DNA of 64,000 nucleotides from Candidatus Melainabacteria bacterium 17Bon1m (GCA_032128875.1 JAVLKG010000002.1:544001-608000), one strand, 5' to 3'. Shown: positions 13,055 through 21,522, counted from the stretch's first letter. The notes: generated by a model from the letters alone, not told the origin. Translations and numbers: made by a program.

Positions 13055-13292
13055 CAGAATAAGTTGAGCGTGCTGTGCTTATCGGCGATTGCTCAATAGC
13101 ATGACACTGATTTACGACAGTTGCGGCCAAAGAGAAGATGCTAGTTTGACTACTAAATGCAGATGAGTACTGTGTTTATGGCTCATGCACCAGCAATTTG
13201 TACGTTCCTAACGAATTAACCTCCGATTTATTCATTTGCGACTAAGATATGCGGATGTTGTAAATGCGTCACATACGCGCGAGGATTTTTCT

Positions 13293-14543
13293 ATGACTAC
13301 TTTTAGAGAGGCAGCGGATGCCGGGTATCTCAAGTTGGTCGCACTTTGGGACAAGGGTAAAGCGTTTAACCCTCCCACGGAGGGTGGTGGCGGACGCTTT
13401 TGGATGGCAGGCAATACCGTTCAAGTAGCAGTCGACTATCTTGTACAAACGCAGCAAAGCGACAAACTCGGCTATATGTCTGACGCGATTTCATTCTTTG
13501 AAACTTGGGTGAAGGGTAACGATCCAGATCCGAAGAATTGGAAGAACAACGGAACTTGGATCGACGATTACGGATGGTGGGGTATCGCTCTCATCAAAGC
13601 GTATGAATTCTCTGGCGTTTTAGGTTATGACAACGATCCTGTTTTGAAAGGAAAGATCGAGAAACACGTGAAAGATTGCTGGACTGCAATGCATGCAGCT
13701 TGGGATCCAACGCGCGTTCCCAATGATGATCCAAGGATAAACATCGTTGGAGGCATCAACAACTCAATCCAGGGTGTAAGCGACAAAGTTAAGTTGGCTG
13801 GAAGAAACTGCGTCACTAATGAAGTTTATTGGCTCTTGAGTCTATTGATGGCAAGAGTAATGAACGATAAGAGCTATCTCGATCCAGCCACCGATGCATC
13901 TGCTTGGTTTACTGCTGCCATAAATGCCAACATTCTCAGCCGAGTGGACATGATCAATGGTCAAGAAGATTACACCAATTTGGTATTGGAGCGATTCAAA
14001 GGTGTGCCAAATTACACAGATCCCAAAGTAGATAACTTGGTCTGGACTGGAGATCAAGGACTCTTCATTGGCGCTAGCATTGAAAACGTTGCCCAAAATC
14101 GCTCGGATCAACCCGGATTGCTGGCGGCTTACAACATTGCCGATTCGGTGAAGCAACGCATGACGCTAAAAAATCAGGTGGTACACGAAGAACTGTTCAA
14201 GATTGCAGATTATCGAATGGATTATGCGGGCGGTAAGGGCGTATTCATGCGTAATCTGCAAGTGCTGAATGTCATCGACCATAAAGAGTCCAATGGACAA
14301 TACGATCCCATCATCAAAGCAAATGCTTCGGCTGTTTGGAATAATCGTCTACCAGATCAGAGATTCCGTTATTACTGGAATGCTGAGCTTCCAGAACCTG
14401 ATGTCGCTACTTGGAAATACAACAAGACAATTGTGGATGCGGTTCTGCATGCTTCAGGTCTGAGTGCGCTGACTGCAGCATTGCCTTGGTTTGCTGACCA
14501 GCAAATTCAGCCAGTTGCTGTGGCTGGTGCGGTAGGCGGCTAG
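13293..14543 (+). CDS. GH76-like glycoside hydrolase (alpha-1,6-mannanase family)
   Basis: Catalytic-type DD motif IDDYGWWGIA, NCVTNE, WTGDQGL, KGVFMRNL, NASAVW. GAGGA RBS before ATG 13293. Confidence 0.7.
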   Translation: MTTFREAADAGYLKLVALWDKGKAFNPPTEGGGGRFWMAGNTVQVAVDYLVQTQQSDKLGYMSDAISFFETWVKGNDPDPKNWKNNGTWIDDYGWWGIALIKAYEFSGVLGYDNDPVLKGKIEKHVKDCWTAMHAAWDPTRVPNDDPRINIVGGINNSIQGVSDKVKLAGRNCVTNEVYWLLSLLMARVMNDKSYLDPATDASAWFTAAINANILSRVDMINGQEDYTNLVLERFKGVPNYTDPKVDNLVWTGDQGLFIGASIENVAQNRSDQPGLLAAYNIADSVKQRMTLKNQVVHEELFKIADYRMDYAGGKGVFMRNLQVLNVIDHKESNGQYDPIIKANASAVWNNRLPDQRFRYYWNAELPEPDVATWKYNKTIVDAVLHASGLSALTAALPWFADQQIQPVAVAGAVGG

Positions 14544-14558
14544 CTAAATCAGATTGAT

Positions 14559-14597
14559 AACATGAGGATTGGTGGTTTCATCAATCCTCGTTGTTTT
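14559..14597 (+). terminator. Intrinsic terminator hairpin between convergent genes
   Basis: GAGGATTGGTG-GTTT-CATCAATCCTC followed by GTTGTTTT. Confidence 0.65.
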
Positions 14598-14638: not shown

Positions 14639-15589
14639 TCAATCGTAGTGGCGCATCTCGCTTCGGTCATCTACGCCCCCAGGATTTGATGCGCTTGCTT
14701 TTTTGCCTACATAGTCGAACGTGTATTCGATGTCGATCGTCGGTGGAGAGCCAGAGCCAAGTTTTGGCAGTGGACTTATTGCAGAAATAGTTTTCATCGC
14801 AGAATCATCACATGCTTTGTTGCCGGAAGATTTAGCGACTCTCGGGTTTGATGTTTTTCCTGATTTATCAACAGTGAAGTGAACTACAACTTTCATTGGT
14901 TTCAAACCGGCCGGCGGGCGCCAAGCATTTCTGATTTTGCTTTGAATTGCAGCCATGTAGCGAGCTCCGTCGAATGGCTCTATTACTACATCGTCGCTTG
15001 GATTTGGAGCGGAGTTTTTTGAATGAGTTGTGGATTGCGTTGGTGTCTGTTTTGCCGAAGTTTTCGATGTTTCAGGTGGGGAGTTTTCATTTGCTTCTTC
15101 TGTCTCTTGCGCCTCTTCATCCTCTTTCCTTTCGCTATACCTAGACTTGGGCGGATGTTTTACTGCATCGATAAAGGCAAGCGTGACGCATCCGCCGAAC
15201 ATAGTGAGGCAAATCAAAACAGCAACTATGCCTGTTGATTGTCGAACAAAACGTGTTGAATTGCGCCGCTTTGCCTTAGCAATTTGCTTGAGGATGTCTG
15301 CGTTGTTTGTTGCTTCTGCAATTGCTGTGAGAAACAGTTCGTCTCCGCAAATGAGTGTGTCGCCAGTTTGATGCGCTTGCAAAACGATTTTGTCTTCGGC
15401 CGAGCCGCCAACTCTGACTTCCCATTCGGTCAGTGGGACAGAGATTGGTTCGTTGTCATTTTCTTCCAGATAAATAATTATCATGTCGTCTTGGAAGGAA
15501 ACGGTAGCAGGAATAGATTCTCCCGTACCGCGCTCATAGAGTCGCGCCAGGAAGTTCATCTGCCGGTCGCCTAACTGTCTGCTGCCCAT
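14639..15589 (-). CDS. Membrane protein: N-terminal cytoplasmic domain, one TM, linker, TonB/TolA C-terminal domain
   Basis: YMAAIQSKIRNAWRPP...VHFTVDKSG...SSGNKACDDSA...PLP...IEYTF is TonB_C/TolA-like; acidic/Pro linker after the TM. Confidence 0.8.
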   Translation of the reverse strand: MGSRQLGDRQMNFLARLYERGTGESIPATVSFQDDMIIIYLEENDNEPISVPLTEWEVRVGGSAEDKIVLQAHQTGDTLICGDELFLTAIAEATNNADILKQIAKAKRRNSTRFVRQSTGIVAVLICLTMFGGCVTLAFIDAVKHPPKSRYSERKEDEEAQETEEANENSPPETSKTSAKQTPTQSTTHSKNSAPNPSDDVVIEPFDGARYMAAIQSKIRNAWRPPAGLKPMKVVVHFTVDKSGKTSNPRVAKSSGNKACDDSAMKTISAISPLPKLGSGSPPTIDIEYTFDYVGKKASASNPGGVDDRSEMRHYD

Positions 15590-15719
15590 TTATCCCCACA
15601 AGCATGCTCCTTGGAATATTCCCAGTTACTAGCAAAGCTCTTACGTTTAAGAATCTAATTTTCTGTTTGACTTGGCTTTACCACGGGTAAGTGGGACAAG
15701 TCACCTGGGAGCTAGTCAA

Positions 15720-16424
15720 ATGCAATACGACGTCTTGCACGAGGGGTCTAACGCCGTACTTCTGGTTTCGTTGAAACGCGGCGAATCGGTGAGAGCGGAA
15801 TCGGGCGCAATGGTAGCCAAATCGCCGAAACTCCATATCCGCGGAAAAATGTGGGGCGGTTTTTTTGGAGCATTGCAGCGCTCTGTATTGGGTGGAGAAA
15901 CATTCTTCTTTCAAGAAATTTCTGCTGAAGACGGCAACGGTGATGTGTTATTGGCACCAAGTTTGATCGGTGATGTGAAAGTCATTTCGCTTCAGGACGG
16001 TCAGGATTATTATGTGCAAAATGGCTGTTTATTGGCTGCATTAGAGCACGTGGAGATGGGCACGAAGGCACAGAAGTTGACCGCCGGTTTATTCTCCGGT
16101 GCGGGTTTTTTCGTCCTTCATCTCAAAGGCAGCGGACATTTTGTCATCAGCGCATTTGGCGCAATTATGGAAATACCTATTCCCGCCGGTCAGGAATATA
16201 TCGTCGACAACGGGCATGTCGTCGCCTGGTCTGGAGACACTGAGTATCACATGGTTAAAGCTGGAAAAACATGGTTTAGCAGCATGACGAGCGGTGAGGG
16301 GCTTGCATGTAAATTTCAAGGACCTGGAAAGGTTTGGATTCAAACGCGCAATCCTCGATCGTTTGGAGCCTGGATCGGTCAGTTTGTAAGAGCACGGGGC
16401 GGACTGCTTTCTCTTATCGGATAA
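15720..16424 (+). CDS. AIM24/TIGR00266 family protein
   Basis: AESGAM, GGETFF, FSGAGFF, VDNGHVVAW, SGEGL and GPGKVWIQTR motifs. ATG 15720 follows GGGAG. Confidence 0.9.
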   Translation: MQYDVLHEGSNAVLLVSLKRGESVRAESGAMVAKSPKLHIRGKMWGGFFGALQRSVLGGETFFFQEISAEDGNGDVLLAPSLIGDVKVISLQDGQDYYVQNGCLLAALEHVEMGTKAQKLTAGLFSGAGFFVLHLKGSGHFVISAFGAIMEIPIPAGQEYIVDNGHVVAWSGDTEYHMVKAGKTWFSSMTSGEGLACKFQGPGKVWIQTRNPRSFGAWIGQFVRARGGLLSLIG

Positions 16425-16436
16425 ACAGAAACAGTT

Positions 16437-17537
16437 GTGGAAAGTTATCAGGCACGATTTTATGATTCTTCCAGCAGTGCGCCGGACCAAGTGCGAGTGC
16501 AGGTTGGCAGCGGAAAGATCAGTGTTGTGGGCACCGCATTTTGTATACCCTTCGAAGAGCTTACTTTGCAAGTCGGCGGGCACGATGGTGACAGGTTTAA
16601 ACTCGTTTGCGAGCGTCAGAGTGTTGCAATCGTTTCGGAAGATCGCAATTTGCTAACTGCAATTGCTAATGCTGCAGGTGGAACTGAGCTTGGCAAACAA
16701 GCTGCTCTAGCAGATCGCAAGATCGTTAAAAGAAGCTCGAACAAAGCTCGCTACTGGACAATTGTCGCGGGTTCTATCGCCGCACTGGGAATAGCGGGAT
16801 ACTTGCTGCTCGACCCGTTGTCAGCCGCGGTTGCGACCATGATCGATCCATCATTCGAAATTAAGTTGGGCGAAATGCTCGCTCAGACGGACAAGCTCGA
16901 TAAGAAATCTGAGAGTTACAAGCGCGTTGCAAATATAGGTCAGAAGCTTGTTGCTCAACTGGATAAGTGTCCCTACAAGTTTCAGTTCTACGTGAAGAAG
17001 GACAAGGAGATTAATGCTTGTGCATATCCCGGTGGCATTCTTATTGTCAATTCTGCGCTTATCGAAGAGGCTAAGAGTGATGATGAATTGGCTGGTGTTA
17101 TCTCGCATGAAATCGGACACGTGATCCACCGCCACACGTTGAAGCAAGCACTGCATAATTGCGGATTGATCACTTGCCTCAGTATCATCTCAGGGGGCGT
17201 GGGAGATAACGAGAAAATTGAAGCAGCATTTGCATTGGCACAGAAGTTGGAATCACTAAATTTCAGCAGAACACAAGAAACTGACGCCGACTTGACTGGT
17301 TTAGCGTTAGAAGTAAAAGCAGGCTATAGCGGTGATGGACTGGTTGAATTTTTCAAGCTTTTAGAGAAACAAGAGAAGGCGCTGGGAAAAGGGGCTGCAC
17401 CGCTTTTTGCTATGTTGTCTACGCACCCAATGAGCGCTGAGAGAGTTGCAAGAATCGAAACAGAATTGAAGCGTCTTAAGGCAGAGAATAGCAAGGATAA
17501 AGAAGCATCCGGTGGAAACACTGACGGCGGAAAGTGA
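16437..17537 (+). CDS. M48 family metallopeptidase (Oma1/YfgC-like) with N-terminal cytoplasmic domain and one TM
   Basis: INACAYPGG, HEIGH, FSRTQETDAD and LSTHP motifs. Confidence 0.9.
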   Translation: MESYQARFYDSSSSAPDQVRVQVGSGKISVVGTAFCIPFEELTLQVGGHDGDRFKLVCERQSVAIVSEDRNLLTAIANAAGGTELGKQAALADRKIVKRSSNKARYWTIVAGSIAALGIAGYLLLDPLSAAVATMIDPSFEIKLGEMLAQTDKLDKKSESYKRVANIGQKLVAQLDKCPYKFQFYVKKDKEINACAYPGGILIVNSALIEEAKSDDELAGVISHEIGHVIHRHTLKQALHNCGLITCLSIISGGVGDNEKIEAAFALAQKLESLNFSRTQETDADLTGLALEVKAGYSGDGLVEFFKLLEKQEKALGKGAAPLFAMLSTHPMSAERVARIETELKRLKAENSKDKEASGGNTDGGK

Positions 17538-17555: not shown

Positions 17556-19469
17556 CTAGCCGACGTGAATGAGCGGGCGGCGTTTTGAATCGTGTTCTGC
17601 TGAGCGCAGAATTTCTCGTGTTAGAGGAGCTGTTTCACCCTCGCCCAAGAAAATGTATTTCACGATGTAAGAAATCGGGTGACCTTCAGTCCATCCGAGA
17701 TAGGCGTGAGGAACTTTGTGCGTACGATCACGGATGTAGAGAAGCAACGCCGCAAGAGCGTTAGGAACCGCTGATGAGGTGCATCTCAAAACCTGGTATC
17801 CGTTAATCACCTGACCGCTGACTTCAAGGCATTCATCGATAAACTCAGAGGTGTCGTCTGTCTTCACCTCAAAGAAGATGAAGTCACCTTCGGGATGTTG
17901 GATACTGTGAACGTGTCGTGCCCACTCTTCTTTGACACCATAATTGATATCATCCGGGCGGTGGGCAAGAATACGAATTTCCCCCCAGTGTTTTTCTGTC
18001 GCTTCGTCTATGAATTTTTCAGCTTGTTCATCGAGTTTGACTGAAGAAATGCGCAATTCTGTCGAGCGTATGGCACGAGAGATGAGCGAGCTGGCAAGAA
18101 TTGCAACGATGAAGAAAGATGCGATTTGCAAGCCTTCTGTGTTCTGCAGCGTGTTGGCGCAAAGTGTATAGATGAATATTGCGCTGATAAGAATAAAACA
18201 GATTCTAATCAGCCAGTTGCGTTTCCACATTGAGAATGTGGCGGCAATAGCTGCTGACGTCATCAACACAAGAACACCGGTCGCGTATGCTCCGGCTTGA
18301 GCATCGACGTTTGCTTTGAACATAATTGTCACTGCTGCTTCGACGATGAAGAAGAAAATCACCAGTGGACGAGTGGCGAGTGCCCAGTCAGGCGCCATGC
18401 CGTAGCGCGGCAAGTATTTTGGTACAAGCGTAAGCAAGCCGGCGATAGCAGACGCGCCGGCAAACCAGAGAATGGAGATGGTAGATAAGTCATAGATACT
18501 GCCGACCAAGTGACCGCAATACTTGTGGCATAGATACGAAAGTGCGCGGCCGTTTGCTTCGCCGCCTTCGGCAAACAATTCAGGTGGAATGAGCAGCGAA
18601 GTGGTGATACTACTTAAGGTCAGGTAAAAGCACATAATAATGGCAGCAGTTGCCAAAAGCTTTTTGGAATTCTTGATTCGACCCTGGGGATGTTTGGGAT
18701 CGTCGTGTGGAAGCCCTTTTACAAGCGGCATGACGGCGACGCCGGTTTCAAATCCTGAAAGACCCAGCGCCAGTTTGGGGAACAAAAGCATCGAGACGAG
18801 GAACATCTCAAGCGGCGAATGGTATCGATTCATAAGCGACTGCCATGCGTCGTCAAAAACATGTGGATTGTCCATCAAATGCTGACCGGCCGCAAACAGT
18901 ACATATGCGTTGAGACTAAGATAAATAGCTACAATGACGGCAGCAACTCCAATTGCTTCACGAAATCCTTTCAAGAAGACACCGGAGAGCAAACTGAGCA
19001 AAAGAAGCGTCACTAAGACACGATCTTTGTTATGCATCCAGACTGGAATGACTGGACTTTCGATAATGTGAGCAGTTGCGTCGGCTGCTGAAAGTGTAAT
19101 CGTAATGATGAATGCTGTTGCGGCAAAACCGAGCAATATAAGGACTACTGTTTTTCCTCGCCAGCCCCCCAGCAAACGCTCCAGCATTGAAACGGAGCCC
19201 TGTCCATGAGGGCTTTCTGATGCAACAACAAAATAAGTCGGTAGTGCTGCTGCCAGCGTCATGAGCACAAGAACTAGTGTCGCCAGTGGTGACAGTAAGC
19301 CGGCAGCAAGAAATGCGATACCGGGCTGATATCCCAAGGTGGAAAAGTAATCCACCCCAGTAAGGCACATAACTTTCCACCAACTGTCTTGATGGGCGGG
19401 CTCGGCCGTATTGGCCTTGGCGCCTTTCATCAGCCATTTGGAGAATTCGGTAGTCTGTTTTTTAGTCAC
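17556..19469 (-). CDS. APC-superfamily transporter, KimA/KUP-like (paralog 1)
   Basis: About 12 [12 protein letters not shown] in TM1, GLSGFETG in TM6, AYATGV; soluble C-terminal domain. Confidence 0.82.
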
Positions 19470-19602: not shown

Positions 19603-21522
19603 CTAAGTTTGTGGGGTCGCATTGATCACACATGCATGGACGCCCGTGTTGGTTTCAATCTCTCGAGCAAACTCGCGAGCTTGTGTTGGATCTTGACCTG
19701 TACCTAGGAAGATCTTTTTGAACTTGCGGTAACGCTTCAATTGGATCATTCCGTCGATCAAAGTCTCCGGCAAAACTTTCACTGTCAAAATCAAATCGCG
19801 GTCTTTGAATTTTGGTGCCACCTGTTGCGATACCACTCTTTGCAACAATTCAAAAACTACGCCTCGTCGTGCAGCTTCTTCTTCAGCATGGAATATGACT
19901 ACTTCTTTTTCTCCAGGTTCCTCATGTTCGAGGAGGTCAAGTAGAAGTACGGTAAGATTTCTCGCTTTTGCTCCGGCAGTGCAAAGAACGTAGGTAGGAA
20001 GGTTGACGGGCAGATCGTCAACATTTTGGAATTTACCAAGCCCTAGGCGCAAGTCAGGTAAATGCTGCAATCGACCTTCTAAAACACCGAGCCTGTAAAA
20101 TGCGGTAACCATAAGAACAATGAGGAAGATTGAAAGACCTAACATTCTTGCGGTTGATGAATATATGAAAAGAGTTACTTCCGCAAAAGAAAGTGCGATC
20201 AAACCAAGTACAGCCGGCACAGGCATGCTCCAGTCGCCTAGATGCCATATCCATCGAGTCCGGTAAGGCGAGCGAGCAACTTTCAGCGGCATTCTTGCTC
20301 TCAGTAAGATTACTCCGAAGCAGAAAGACATCATCACGCCAAGAAAAGCCATTCCATAGACTTCGCCCAGCACGTTAACTTCGCCAGGAAGCAGGCAAAT
20401 CATCACAATTGTTACCAGCATGAAAGATAGTGCGCAATTTGGATAACCCTGAAAGAATGGCAAGCGTTCTCGAGTTTTGTTGAGTGGCCACGGCGCATTG
20501 TCAGCCCATCGTCTCAAAAAGAAGCCTGGGAGATTTCCTTGTTTTGCCATTGTGGTGCATAGCCCTATGCAGCCAGCATAGGCGGTATTAACCGCTGCAA
20601 ACAGAATCAAGCAAGCGTCCAAAACCAAAATAATCAAACCACTTTGACCAAACTCGATAAATGCTAATCCGCTTAGCAGGCTGTTCGAATAGGTATTCAT
20701 CTGTTCTGGAGTCAGAAGAATAATGCAGAGGTAAGAAGTAAGAGGTGCAGTAATACCCACCAAGGAAACAACTACCAGATACACCTTACGCAGTGTGAGC
20801 CAGGTAGGCGTCTTTAGCTGCTCCACAATTTGCGCTGCAGCTTCAAACCCTGTGATGCCTAGAAACGCCGCAGCGAAGCCTCTATACATGTCCTGTGTGG
20901 AAATCGTCGGTAGTCCTTCAAAAACACGGGCAAAATTTGCCCCGCTCGAGAAAGCAATGAATAGCCCATAGAAATCCATCACTAGCAAAAGACCGAAGTG
21001 GAATGCAGCTATTCCCAGAACAATTTTTGCCGGCTCTTTGATCCCAACAATGTTTAGAAGTCCAAAAAATACAACGGGAATTGAAGCAACTGCGACAACA
21101 TTTTGAACTGGCCAATTAACGATGTTATCGAAAGAATCTAGGTAGTATGCCCCCGAAATTGCACTGACAGCAGCAGTAGCCAGGTAGGAGAGTATTGAAA
21201 GGGCTCCTACTACCATAGCCATCCGCCTTCCGACAGTCTGTAGAACCATCATGTATGCACCCCCGTTAAAGGGGCTAGCGGCACAGCCTTCCTCATACGT
21301 GACCTTGAATAGCCACATGAGAATACAGACGACTAATATCATCAGAGGCGCTGCATATCCAACCAGAGGACGAATTATCCCTGTCGAATAGAAAACGGAC
21401 GTGCCAATATCCGCACCGACAATGGCTGCTGCTAGCCACCAGCTAAGCAGTTCGTCCTTGTGGTGGGTTACCTGTTGCGATGCAGCGGGCTGTGTGCTTG
21501 GTGCTGTAGACGGTTCTTGCAA
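19603..21522 (-). CDS. APC-superfamily transporter, KUP/KimA-like, with USP-like C-terminal domain
   Basis: About 12 TM; GADIGTSVFY (compare KUP GDIGTSPLY), NGGAY, GITGFEA. Confidence 0.8.
   Translation of the reverse strand: MQEPSTAPSTQPAASQQVTHHKDELLSWWLAAAIVGADIGTSVFYSTGIIRPLVGYAAPLMILVVCILMWLFKVTYEEGCAASPFNGGAYMMVLQTVGRRMAMVVGALSILSYLATAAVSAISGAYYLDSFDNIVNWPVQNVVAVASIPVVFFGLLNIVGIKEPAKIVLGIAAFHFGLLLVMDFYGLFIAFSSGANFARVFEGLPTISTQDMYRGFAAAFLGITGFEAAAQIVEQLKTPTWLTLRKVYLVVVSLVGITAPLTSYLCIILLTPEQMNTYSNSLLSGLAFIEFGQSGLIILVLDACLILFAAVNTAYAGCIGLCTTMAKQGNLPGFFLRRWADNAPWPLNKTRERLPFFQGYPNCALSFMLVTIVMICLLPGEVNVLGEVYGMAFLGVMMSFCFGVILLRARMPLKVARSPYRTRWIWHLGDWSMPVPAVLGLIALSFAEVTLFIYSSTARMLGLSIFLIVLMVTAFYRLGVLEGRLQHLPDLRLGLGKFQNVDDLPVNLPTYVLCTAGAKARNLTVLLLDLLEHEEPGEKEVVIFHAEEEAARRGVVFELLQRVVSQQVAPKFKDRDLILTVKVLPETLIDGMIQLKRYRKFKKIFLGTGQDPTQAREFAREIETNTGVHACVINATPQT

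Follow-up and report, generated by a model that had tools for sequence, protein, structure and literature searches.

A PH-like N-terminal domain shared by an M48 metalloprotease and a TonB-C protein, with AIM24 as its predicted partner, in a Candidatus Melainabacteria genome

We analysed a 64,000-nucleotide stretch of the genome of Candidatus Melainabacteria bacterium 17Bon1m (JAVLKG010000002.1:544001-608000; hereafter the window), in which a gene of the AIM24 family lies between two genes for membrane proteins, one with a TonB-type C-terminal domain and one with an M48 metalloprotease domain, each protein carrying a single putative transmembrane (TM) segment (Table 1). The TonB-type gene is divergent from the other two, and 12 bp (16425..16436) separate the AIM24 stop from the start of the M48-type gene. 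The original prediction, which had been made from the sequence alone, placed the three open reading frames (ORFs) in just this way, 12-bp gap included, and the ORF coordinates and Pfam matches agree with it. The longest AIM24 ORF is 15672..16424, with a TTG start at 15672; we put the real start at ATG 15720, because this start is conserved in an alignment of orthologues (A2, 14 rows). The AIM24 product belongs to its family by both Pfam (PF01987, 2.9e-66, 223.5 bits against a cut-off of 25.7) and NCBIfam (TIGR00266, 170.2 bits against 96.6), and no hydrophobic segment is found in it by a Kyte-Doolittle scan. The protease falls within the M48 peptidases (Peptidase_M48, PF01435, 4.2e-29, 102.1 bits; cut-off 20.3), and the TonB-type protein matches Pfam TonB_2 (6.7e-16, 58.6 bits; cut-off 22) and TonB_C (1.5e-8, 35.4 bits; cut-off 24.6) as well as NCBIfam tonB_Cterm (4.7e-13, 49.3 bits; cut-off 27.1). 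A consensus promoter scan gave no promoter-like match within the divergent intergenic region.

Table 1. Genes, domains and intervals of the TonB-type / AIM24 / M48-type locus, in window coordinates
Feature	Position	Strand	Basis and details
TonB-type gene, 316 aa	14639..15589	-	ORF; PH-like N-domain, one TM, acidic and Ser/Thr-rich linker, TonB_2/TonB_C domain
PH-like (DUF7092-like) N-terminal domain of TonB-type protein, residues 1-115	15245..15589	-	alignments A1 and A5, AF2, Foldseek
Single hydrophobic segment of TonB-type protein, residues 117-144	15158..15241	-	Kyte-Doolittle scan; putative TM helix, N-terminus inside
TonB_2 C-terminal domain, residues 209-287	14729..14965	-	Pfam PF13103; presumably periplasmic
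Divergent intergenic region, TonB-type gene / AIM24 gene	15590..15719		sequence read
AIM24 / TIGR00266 gene, 234 aa from conserved ATG 15720	15720..16424	+	Pfam, NCBIfam; no TM segment
M48-type gene, 366 aa	16437..17537	+	ORF; PH-like N-domain, one TM, M48 metalloprotease domain
PH-like (DUF7092-like) N-terminal domain of protease, residues 1-104	16437..16748	+	DUF7092 20.4 bits, hhalign, AF2, PH matches
Single hydrophobic segment of protease, residues 107-133	16755..16835	+	Kyte-Doolittle scan; putative TM helix
Peptidase_M48 domain, residues 162-342	16920..17462	+	Pfam; HEIGH residues 224-228 (17106..17120), RTQETDAD at 278

The N-termini of the two membrane proteins align without gaps, and the similarity claimed for them originally is significant. 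BLASTP finds 17 identities in 54 positions (31.2 bits, pairwise E 3e-7), and Smith-Waterman alignment gives a score of 80, with 19 identities in 59 columns, which none of 5000 shuffles of either domain reaches (0/5000 each way; mean 25.4, standard deviation 4.4, z 12.4, Gumbel p 6e-8). Furthermore, within the whole 7.55-Mb genome the two N-domains are each other's best non-self match (E 0.0025 and 0.0072). In an alignment of ten M48-type and seven TonB-type N-domains from the genomes of relatives (A1, 17 rows), the likeness extends across the full ~100 amino acids, taking in the opening [FY]xAR[LF]Y, the turn GG..(G/E)D[RK] and a closing helix. Only Arg7 and Gly48 (protease numbering) are invariant in A1, the arginine corresponding to R16 of the TonB-type protein.

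By profile comparison, the shared domain is a divergent, sub-threshold relative of Pfam DUF7092 (PF23368). The M48-type N-domain scores 20.4 bits (E 7.7e-4), below the membership cut-off of 24.5, 4 of the 17 aligned A1 members match the family (best 4.9e-4, all under the cut-off), and a Pfam scan of the TonB-type N-domain gives no DUF7092 match. As a canonical set we took eight above-cut-off domains, from 8 of the 151 genomes of a phylum sample; hhalign aligns A1 with these eight at 96.9% (E 1.8e-10, 84 columns), a match that places the N-domain as a divergent DUF7092 branch. In all eight canonical loci the peptidase is built like the protease here, with an N-terminal domain of ~80-100 residues, one TM and Peptidase_M48. 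Unlike the canonical domains, those of the bacterial family to which the window belongs carry the invariant Arg, form their own branch in a tree, are also found on TonB-C proteins and are linked to AIM24.

Structure prediction supports a PH-like fold of seven strands and a C-terminal helix for the N-domain. AlphaFold2 (AF2) run on A1 gives the M48-type domain a pLDDT of 81.5 and a pTM of 0.66, and run on an alignment of 12 TonB-type sequences only (A5) it gives the TonB-type domain a pLDDT of 79.1; the two models agree in how their elements succeed one another, seven strands leading to a helix and then to a long helix, the latter entering the basic flank in the A1 model. Foldseek searches against the PDB return for both models top-50 lists made up almost entirely of PH or FERM-F3 domains (best E 1e-4 for the M48-type and 5.7e-4 for the TonB-type domain, TMq from 0.5 up to 0.62 and 0.60). 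The top 50 from VIA-align, which is independent of Foldseek, consist wholly of PH, PTB or FERM-F3 domains, with Z of 6.1-7.4 and ~80 residues aligned. What had been a guess at a PH-like fold is thus matched by two models from separate alignments, both of which retrieve PH and FERM-F3 domains.

Each N-domain is followed by a basic stretch and one hydrophobic segment, as had been noted, the N-side flank holding six Lys/Arg in 15 residues in both proteins and no Asp/Glu in the TonB-type protein. According to the positive-inside rule, a K/R-rich flank marks the cytoplasmic side, and the PH-like domain would therefore be cytoplasmic and the C-terminal domains periplasmic. The Pfam matches agree with the output domains described at the outset, a TonB_C domain on one protein and a HEIGH protease (motif at residue 224) on the other; the Glu of the RTQETDAD motif (residue 278) is presumably the third zinc ligand. 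BepA and LoiP of E. coli are periplasmic envelope proteases, and their branch is known for degrading substrates. The nearest solved or named relatives of the protease domain are PDB 3c37, an M48 peptidase (8.9e-29), BepA, at ~1e-13 in the PDB (3e-13), and LoiP; the M48 catalytic domain with HExxH is common to BepA, LoiP and the protease here. The protease is nevertheless neither BepA nor LoiP, because its scores are far below the NCBIfam cut-offs (BepA, NF052400, 3.1e-31, 108.7 bits against 570; LoiP, NF052399, 7.1e-21, 74.8 bits against 365) and it has no TPR domain, no TPR family being matched in the Pfam scan. Unlike BepA and LoiP, it has no signal peptide or lipobox, and it would instead be held by a TM anchor behind an N-terminal cytoplasmic domain.

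The TonB-type protein is like TonB and TolA in its C-terminal domain, its apparent single-pass inner-membrane form and its long linker, which is, however, acidic and Ser/Thr-rich and not Pro-rich. TonB couples to ExbBD through a His-containing SHLS motif in its TM. Judged by its domains, the protein here resembles TonB itself only in the C-terminal domain, and we rejected identity as a true TonB: 115 putatively cytoplasmic residues precede the TM, the TM has no His and no ExbB/ExbD gene is adjacent, with no ExbB/ExbD-like family among the neighbouring ORFs scanned with Pfam. Identity as TolA (TIGR02794) was rejected as well, at 37.3 bits against a cut-off of 59.45.

When 1.84 billion representative proteins were searched by profile, 72 matched the N-domain at E≤1e-3, 40 of them at E≤1e-10. 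We scanned 65 of the 72 with Pfam; the seven left out, longer than 900 aa and each matched over several short stretches, we judged to be probable repeat artefacts. Peptidase_M48 is present in 35 of the 65 and TonB_2 in 15, both counts including P0034 (546 aa), which carries the N-domain, a TM, M48, a linker and TonB_2 in one chain; 14 proteins match no family, one has a weak DUF7092 match alone and one has an odd match to MnmE_helical. Among the 65, no partner family other than M48 and TonB_2/TonB_C recurs. Five of the 14 no-family proteins were inspected, and two of them are fragments that end just past the TM; the other three are full-length, with C-termini that look TonB-C-like by eye. The protein with the odd match, P0061 (137 aa), runs from the middle of an N-domain into MnmE_helical (3.4e-11); it is probably a fragment, either chimeric or mis-called. 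Another M48-TonB_2 fusion (L057, 539 aa) is encoded by the gene next after an AIM24 gene. These natural N-domain-M48-TonB_2 fusions support the coupling of protease and TonB-C protein envisaged in the original prediction, and suggest that the two act on the same target. BlaR1/MecR1-type M56 peptidases fused to TonB_C are known, in which a metalloprotease of a related clan and a TonB C-terminal domain share one membrane protein; P0034 and L057 are like these in that respect, although the BlaR1/MecR1-type fusions are multi-pass and not known to involve DUF7092 or AIM24.

We located the domain with the A1 profile and AIM24 with the window's AIM24 sequence in 101 sampled genomes of the order, and cross-tabulated their positions. 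The domain is present in 52 of the 101 genomes (77 matches), in 18 of the 35 genera and all within one family; in 45 of the 52, an AIM24 match of at least 47% identity lies within 1.5 kb of it, and the linkage to AIM24 that the original prediction foresaw is thus seen in most domain-bearing genomes. Since relatives are not independent, these counts stand for conservation within one family and carry no statistical test. For 44 M48-type matches AIM24 lies directly upstream on the same strand, and for one (G083) downstream, while 20 TonB-type genes are divergent from AIM24, as in the window, and one follows it on the same strand (G093:C82). The full divergent three-gene layout was seen in part of the family only, and is kept across at least three genera at N-domain identities of 26-33%. 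At two loci (L037 and L059), AIM24 adjoins a TonB-type gene with no M48-type gene adjacent, the L037 pair being divergent. G093 holds two AIM24 copies (69% and 63% identity), one beside each domain type: upstream of the M48-type gene at G093:C3:23567-24602, and upstream of the TonB-type gene, on the same strand, at G093:C82 (L059:2040-3487). Judged by gene order, the module seems here to have been divided naturally into two pairs.

Full-length AIM24 matches of at least 54% identity in this cross-tabulation all lie beside the domain, with the exception of G087:C90, and the AIM24 paralogues of 52-53% identity in the window's genus are unlinked. The window's genome itself has three AIM24 genes, of which only the window copy is domain-linked; the unlinked paralogues are at G000:C7:160967-161635 (L042, 53% identity) and G000:C1:647265-647918 (L041, 35%). 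In G040, two AIM24-M48-type pairs are found on short contigs (C348:1452-2117 and C554:1439-2937), with N-domains 76-79% identical to the window's; the double copy may reflect a strain mixture in the bin.

Beyond the family, a search of 401 phylum genomes with the A1 profile found the domain in two further genomes, in both as part of an AT-rich M48-type gene, together with one fragment with internal stops. We also took a census anchored on AIM24, covering the best 80 of 465 confirmed loci in a species-level genome collection, which overlaps the order sample and is not independent of it. Among these 80 best loci, 36 have an A1-type domain beside AIM24, mostly in Melainabacteria, Obscuribacterales or Cyanobacteria metagenome-assembled genomes (MAGs), a few being labelled 'bacterium'; five are of Obscuribacterales/Melainabacteria type and lack the domain (L103-L105 and L108, of the paralogue type, and L091, 58% identity); 35 are from Paenibacillus, Cohnella or Bacillus (45-50% identity), with the domain absent nearby; and one, from a Nitrospinota MAG, lacks the domain. 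In the last three (L109, L115 from an uncultured Nitrospira, and L120), the gene directly after AIM24 encodes an M48 protease that has a TM and an N-terminal region of ~120 aa. These N-terminal regions fall short of the E 1e-3 criterion with the A1 hidden Markov model and have no DUF7092 match in Pfam; taken together as a three-row alignment, they are linked to the domain by hhalign at 93.8% (E 1.7e-7). By this match, and on thin evidence, an AIM24-(DUF7092-like)-M48 operon probably exists beyond the family. Two loci of the census carry the AIM24-M48-type operon, elsewhere met in records of Obscuribacterales type, under other labels (L101, Proteobacteria; L107, Chloroflexota), and these labels may reflect mis-binning or loose labelling. 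At a Cohnella locus (L110:3001-4321), the ORF next after the AIM24 homologue (48% identity) encodes 180 aa and by eye resembles an extracytoplasmic function (ECF)-type sigma factor; no DUF7092-like domain is present.

The close linkage, which is to one AIM24 subclade, is accompanied by a predicted physical contact. In a controlled complex prediction of AIM24 (alignment A2) with protease residues 1-104 (A1) at 1:1, ipSAE is 0.61, 0.62 and 0.60 in three runs, compared with 0.00 for the best of three controls; the runs have at least 84% of their contacts in common, with partner pLDDT of at least 83. The calibration mark is reached by 116 of 157 solved complexes and by 2 of 215 mismatched pairs, counts that hold roughly only, because author-built alignments were used. 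The docking of AIM24 on the M48-type domain, put forward originally as a possibility, thus passes a controlled prediction, which supports this binding and does not show it. Overall, we consider it fairly probable that AIM24 binds the PH-like domain.

On the domain side, the predicted interface comprises residues 7, 9, 11, 13-16, 18, 47-51, 53, 55, 57-59, 62-64 and 66, among them the invariant R7 and G48 as well as Y9, and is more conserved than the remainder of the domain (0.49 versus 0.39, one-sided p 0.02). The AIM24 side (residues 92, 94-95, 98, 116, 151, 153-158, 170-176 and 201-204) holds the invariant W170, D173 and G201-P202-G203. The contact between D173 of AIM24 and R7 of the domain is among the most confident in the model (error 1.8 Å). 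Position 173 is Asp in 14 of 14 linked orthologues and in the unlinked copy of G087 type (L091), whereas the other unlinked homologues in the comparison, six in number, have Thr, Gly, Tyr or Glu there, namely the two paralogues of the window's own genome (Thr in the C7 copy, Gly in the C1 copy), a congener's paralogue and homologues from Cohnella, Paenibacillus and Nitrospinota. In three distant M48-linked AIM24s position 173 is Thr, and two of their N-domains have Thr at the R7 position. The distribution fits a clade-specific Arg-Asp pair, seen over few independent events. One lone TonB-type protein (L063, G050:C6) has Met at the near-invariant Arg and DG in place of GG, and forms the longest branch of the tree; its genome has no AIM24 match at E≤1e-10. 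These substitutions would fit a relaxed AIM24-binding face in a single case, and the lone TonB-type copy of G064 retains both the Arg and GG.

A tree of 33 N-domains places those of this family in one group (86/93), separate from the canonical DUF7092 domains (95/95). All M48-type domains fall into a single clade (98/96); the TonB-type domains branch outside it without resolution, which leaves room for a single origin. From this topology, the duplication onto the TonB-C protein is old relative to the sampled genera, and the likeness within the window is no recent copy. Recent gene conversion between the two N-domains was considered and rejected, as the tree separates the M48-type clade across genera.

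The computed homology, the predicted fold, the restricted set of fusion partners, the gene linkage and the passing complex prediction can be brought together in one reading, to which we give about an even chance: AIM24 would be the cytoplasmic partner of the PH-like domains by which a BepA/LoiP-type periplasmic protease and a TonB-C protein are anchored. The locus would then encode an envelope module of the inner membrane in which a single cytoplasmic domain is used twice. The two membrane proteins would be single-pass with the N-terminus inside, beginning with the PH-like domain of ~100 residues and exposing, outside the membrane, a BepA/LoiP-type M48 zinc protease in one case and a TonB/TolA-type C-terminal domain in the other. 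Soluble AIM24 would bind the β-sheet face of the PH-like domain, with R7 of the protease, or R16 of the TonB-type protein, meeting Asp173 in the predicted interface. Because both membrane proteins keep the binding face, AIM24 could hold either, and thus bind the TonB-type copy too. As a cytoplasmic adaptor or regulator it might unite the two, in a ternary complex, and the periplasmic protease would thereby be directed to the outer-membrane or wall component, whichever it may be, that the TonB-C domain grips. In some relatives one polypeptide appears to provide the same arrangement (N-domain-TM-M48-TonB_2). That all three proteins act in one complex is possible, and we hold it to be somewhat doubtful. 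As for the physiological role, presumably in the envelope, outer-membrane protein quality control or processing is rated likeliest because of the kinship with BepA and LoiP; taken on its own, this assignment is rather unlikely to be the right one.

Several observations weigh against this reading. Seven of the 52 domain-bearing genomes have no adjacent AIM24. The G086 locus is cut off by a contig edge, and G087 has the genes on different contigs; in the others a TonB-type gene stands alone (G050, G064) or an M48-type gene has no AIM24 nearby (G070, G074, G084). Three short partial AIM24 matches (53-66% identity) have no domain on their contig, one in G040 and two in G058, a genome that yielded no domain match at all. 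In genus g14, the TonB-type genes are located at other places in the genome. Outside the family, no AIM24 lies within 1.5 kb of two AT-rich M48-type loci or of the eight canonical DUF7092-M48 loci, and AIM24 clearly also works without the domain, because the 35 Paenibacillus, Cohnella or Bacillus loci have none nearby. As for the models, ipSAE is the predictor's own confidence and covers the M48-type domain at 1:1 only, and the AIM24 side of the interface is not significantly more conserved than elsewhere (0.75 versus 0.70, p 0.20). The fold predictions rest on shallow alignments (17 and 12 rows), and no VIA-align match reaches Z 8, the tool grading the range obtained as middling.

Some of these points would be expected if the PH-like domain were self-contained, that is, a lipid-binding, dimerising or autoinhibitory module tuning each protein alone, with AIM24 only co-transcribed, for instance in a stress regulon. 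The eight canonical and two AT-rich loci and the five order genomes with the domain away from AIM24 favour such an arrangement, as does the fact that most of the PH-domain matches bind lipid or peptide. Nevertheless, the complex prediction passes where the controls give 0.00, through an interface that includes the domain's sole two invariant residues; all 14 linked AIM24 orthologues have Asp173, which only one of the unlinked copies compared (L091) shares; and AIM24 accompanies the domain whatever its output domain and in three gene orders. We regard a self-contained domain as unlikely. It could also be argued that the two N-domains are merely old paralogues, shuffling having put DUF7092 on a TonB-C protein, and that the two proteins serve unrelated processes, each perhaps using AIM24 separately. 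The old split in the tree (M48-type clade 98/96, TonB-type domains outside), the TonB-type genes that are unlinked to a protease in genus g14 or alone in G050 and G064, and the two AIM24 copies of G093, one per type, would all agree with this. Yet in the P0034 and L057 fusions a single N-domain precedes both outputs, no partners but M48 and TonB_2/TonB_C recur among the 65 of 72 proteins scanned, and at least three genera, with N-domains 26-33% identical, have retained the divergent layout, which together make mere paralogy quite unlikely.

A third alternative is trans-membrane signalling of an anti-sigma or BlaR1-like kind, in which a periplasmic event (the M48 domain cleaving or being cleaved, or the TonB-C domain capturing a ligand) would alter the PH-like domain's hold on AIM24, the latter being the cytoplasmic output. 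A layout in which one TM joins a protein-binding domain in the cytoplasm to a protease or binding domain in the periplasm would suit this, with AIM24 as the sole soluble component, and so would the Cohnella locus with its ECF-sigma-like ORF, recognised by eye only. No conserved DNA-binding or sigma-factor gene is present in the Obscuribacterales loci inspected, AIM24 has no known regulatory activity, and the protease is of the BepA/LoiP branch, which is known as degradative; signalling is thus improbable. The reading we prefer remains that of AIM24 as the cytoplasmic partner of both membrane-anchored proteins.

As regards the surroundings of the locus, a 13-pair hairpin with a T-run lies at 14562..14591 (+), between the TonB-type gene and a convergent GH76-like gene (13236..14543). 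It is likely a terminator, in a terminator scan that overall performed no better than on shuffled sequences. Downstream of the M48-type gene are two adjacent large membrane proteins of near-equal size, 17556..19469 (-) and 19603..21522 (-), of 637 and 639 aa; the latter belongs to AA_permease_2 and is extended at its C-terminus by ~170 aa, and the former gives zero Pfam matches.

AIM24 (DUF124, TIGR00266) occurs across bacteria, archaea and eukaryotes, and few bacterial PH-like domains are known to have a defined protein partner. In prokaryotes AIM24 was still largely uncharacterised as of 2022, according to excerpts of a published account (PMC10203443). In eukaryotes, excerpts of the literature associate Aim24 of yeast with MICOS and the plant proteins PAWH1/2 with the ERAD complex of Hrd1 (PMC3975624, PMC6677890, PMC10203443), so that AIM24 proteins of the same Pfam family as the window's are associated there with membrane complexes for contact sites or protein degradation. 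The partners described in these excerpts are unrelated to DUF7092, M48 or TonB, and the plant proteins are described as having a TM extension of their own (PMC10203443), which the window's AIM24 lacks. No link emerged between Aim24 and the mitochondrial M48 protease Oma1, which the original prediction had named alongside it, though no test aimed at one was made. A more general proposal would be that AIM24 proteins are cytoplasmic adaptors on DUF7092-type domains of single-pass proteins, assembling or gating trans-envelope machines, and that such a partnership is ancestral and still visible in MICOS and Hrd1 ERAD; we think this unlikely.

The component families are known and DUF7092-M48 is catalogued, although DUF7092 has zero mentions in open-access full text or bioRxiv. 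In the same literature, where relevance was judged mostly by title (subscription journals and supplements being outside its scope), we found no relevant account of AIM24 with M48, TonB or PH domains, none of M48, PH and TonB in combination among the titles listed, and no description of the domain on TonB-C proteins, of double-output fusions or of a conserved AIM24 partnership with a predicted interface. The original prediction knew of no description of the arrangement, and this agrees with the open literature; the domain itself is a distant, sub-threshold relative of one that Pfam already lists (DUF7092).

The main value of these results is a testable partner for bacterial AIM24, with a named pair of contact residues, and a context for AIM24 in an inner-membrane-anchored periplasmic protease and a TonB-C protein. 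If the predicted interaction is true, DUF7092 would gain a function and AIM24 its first bacterial role, and there may be cytoplasmic control of a periplasmic protease in these little-studied, non-photosynthetic relatives of Cyanobacteria.

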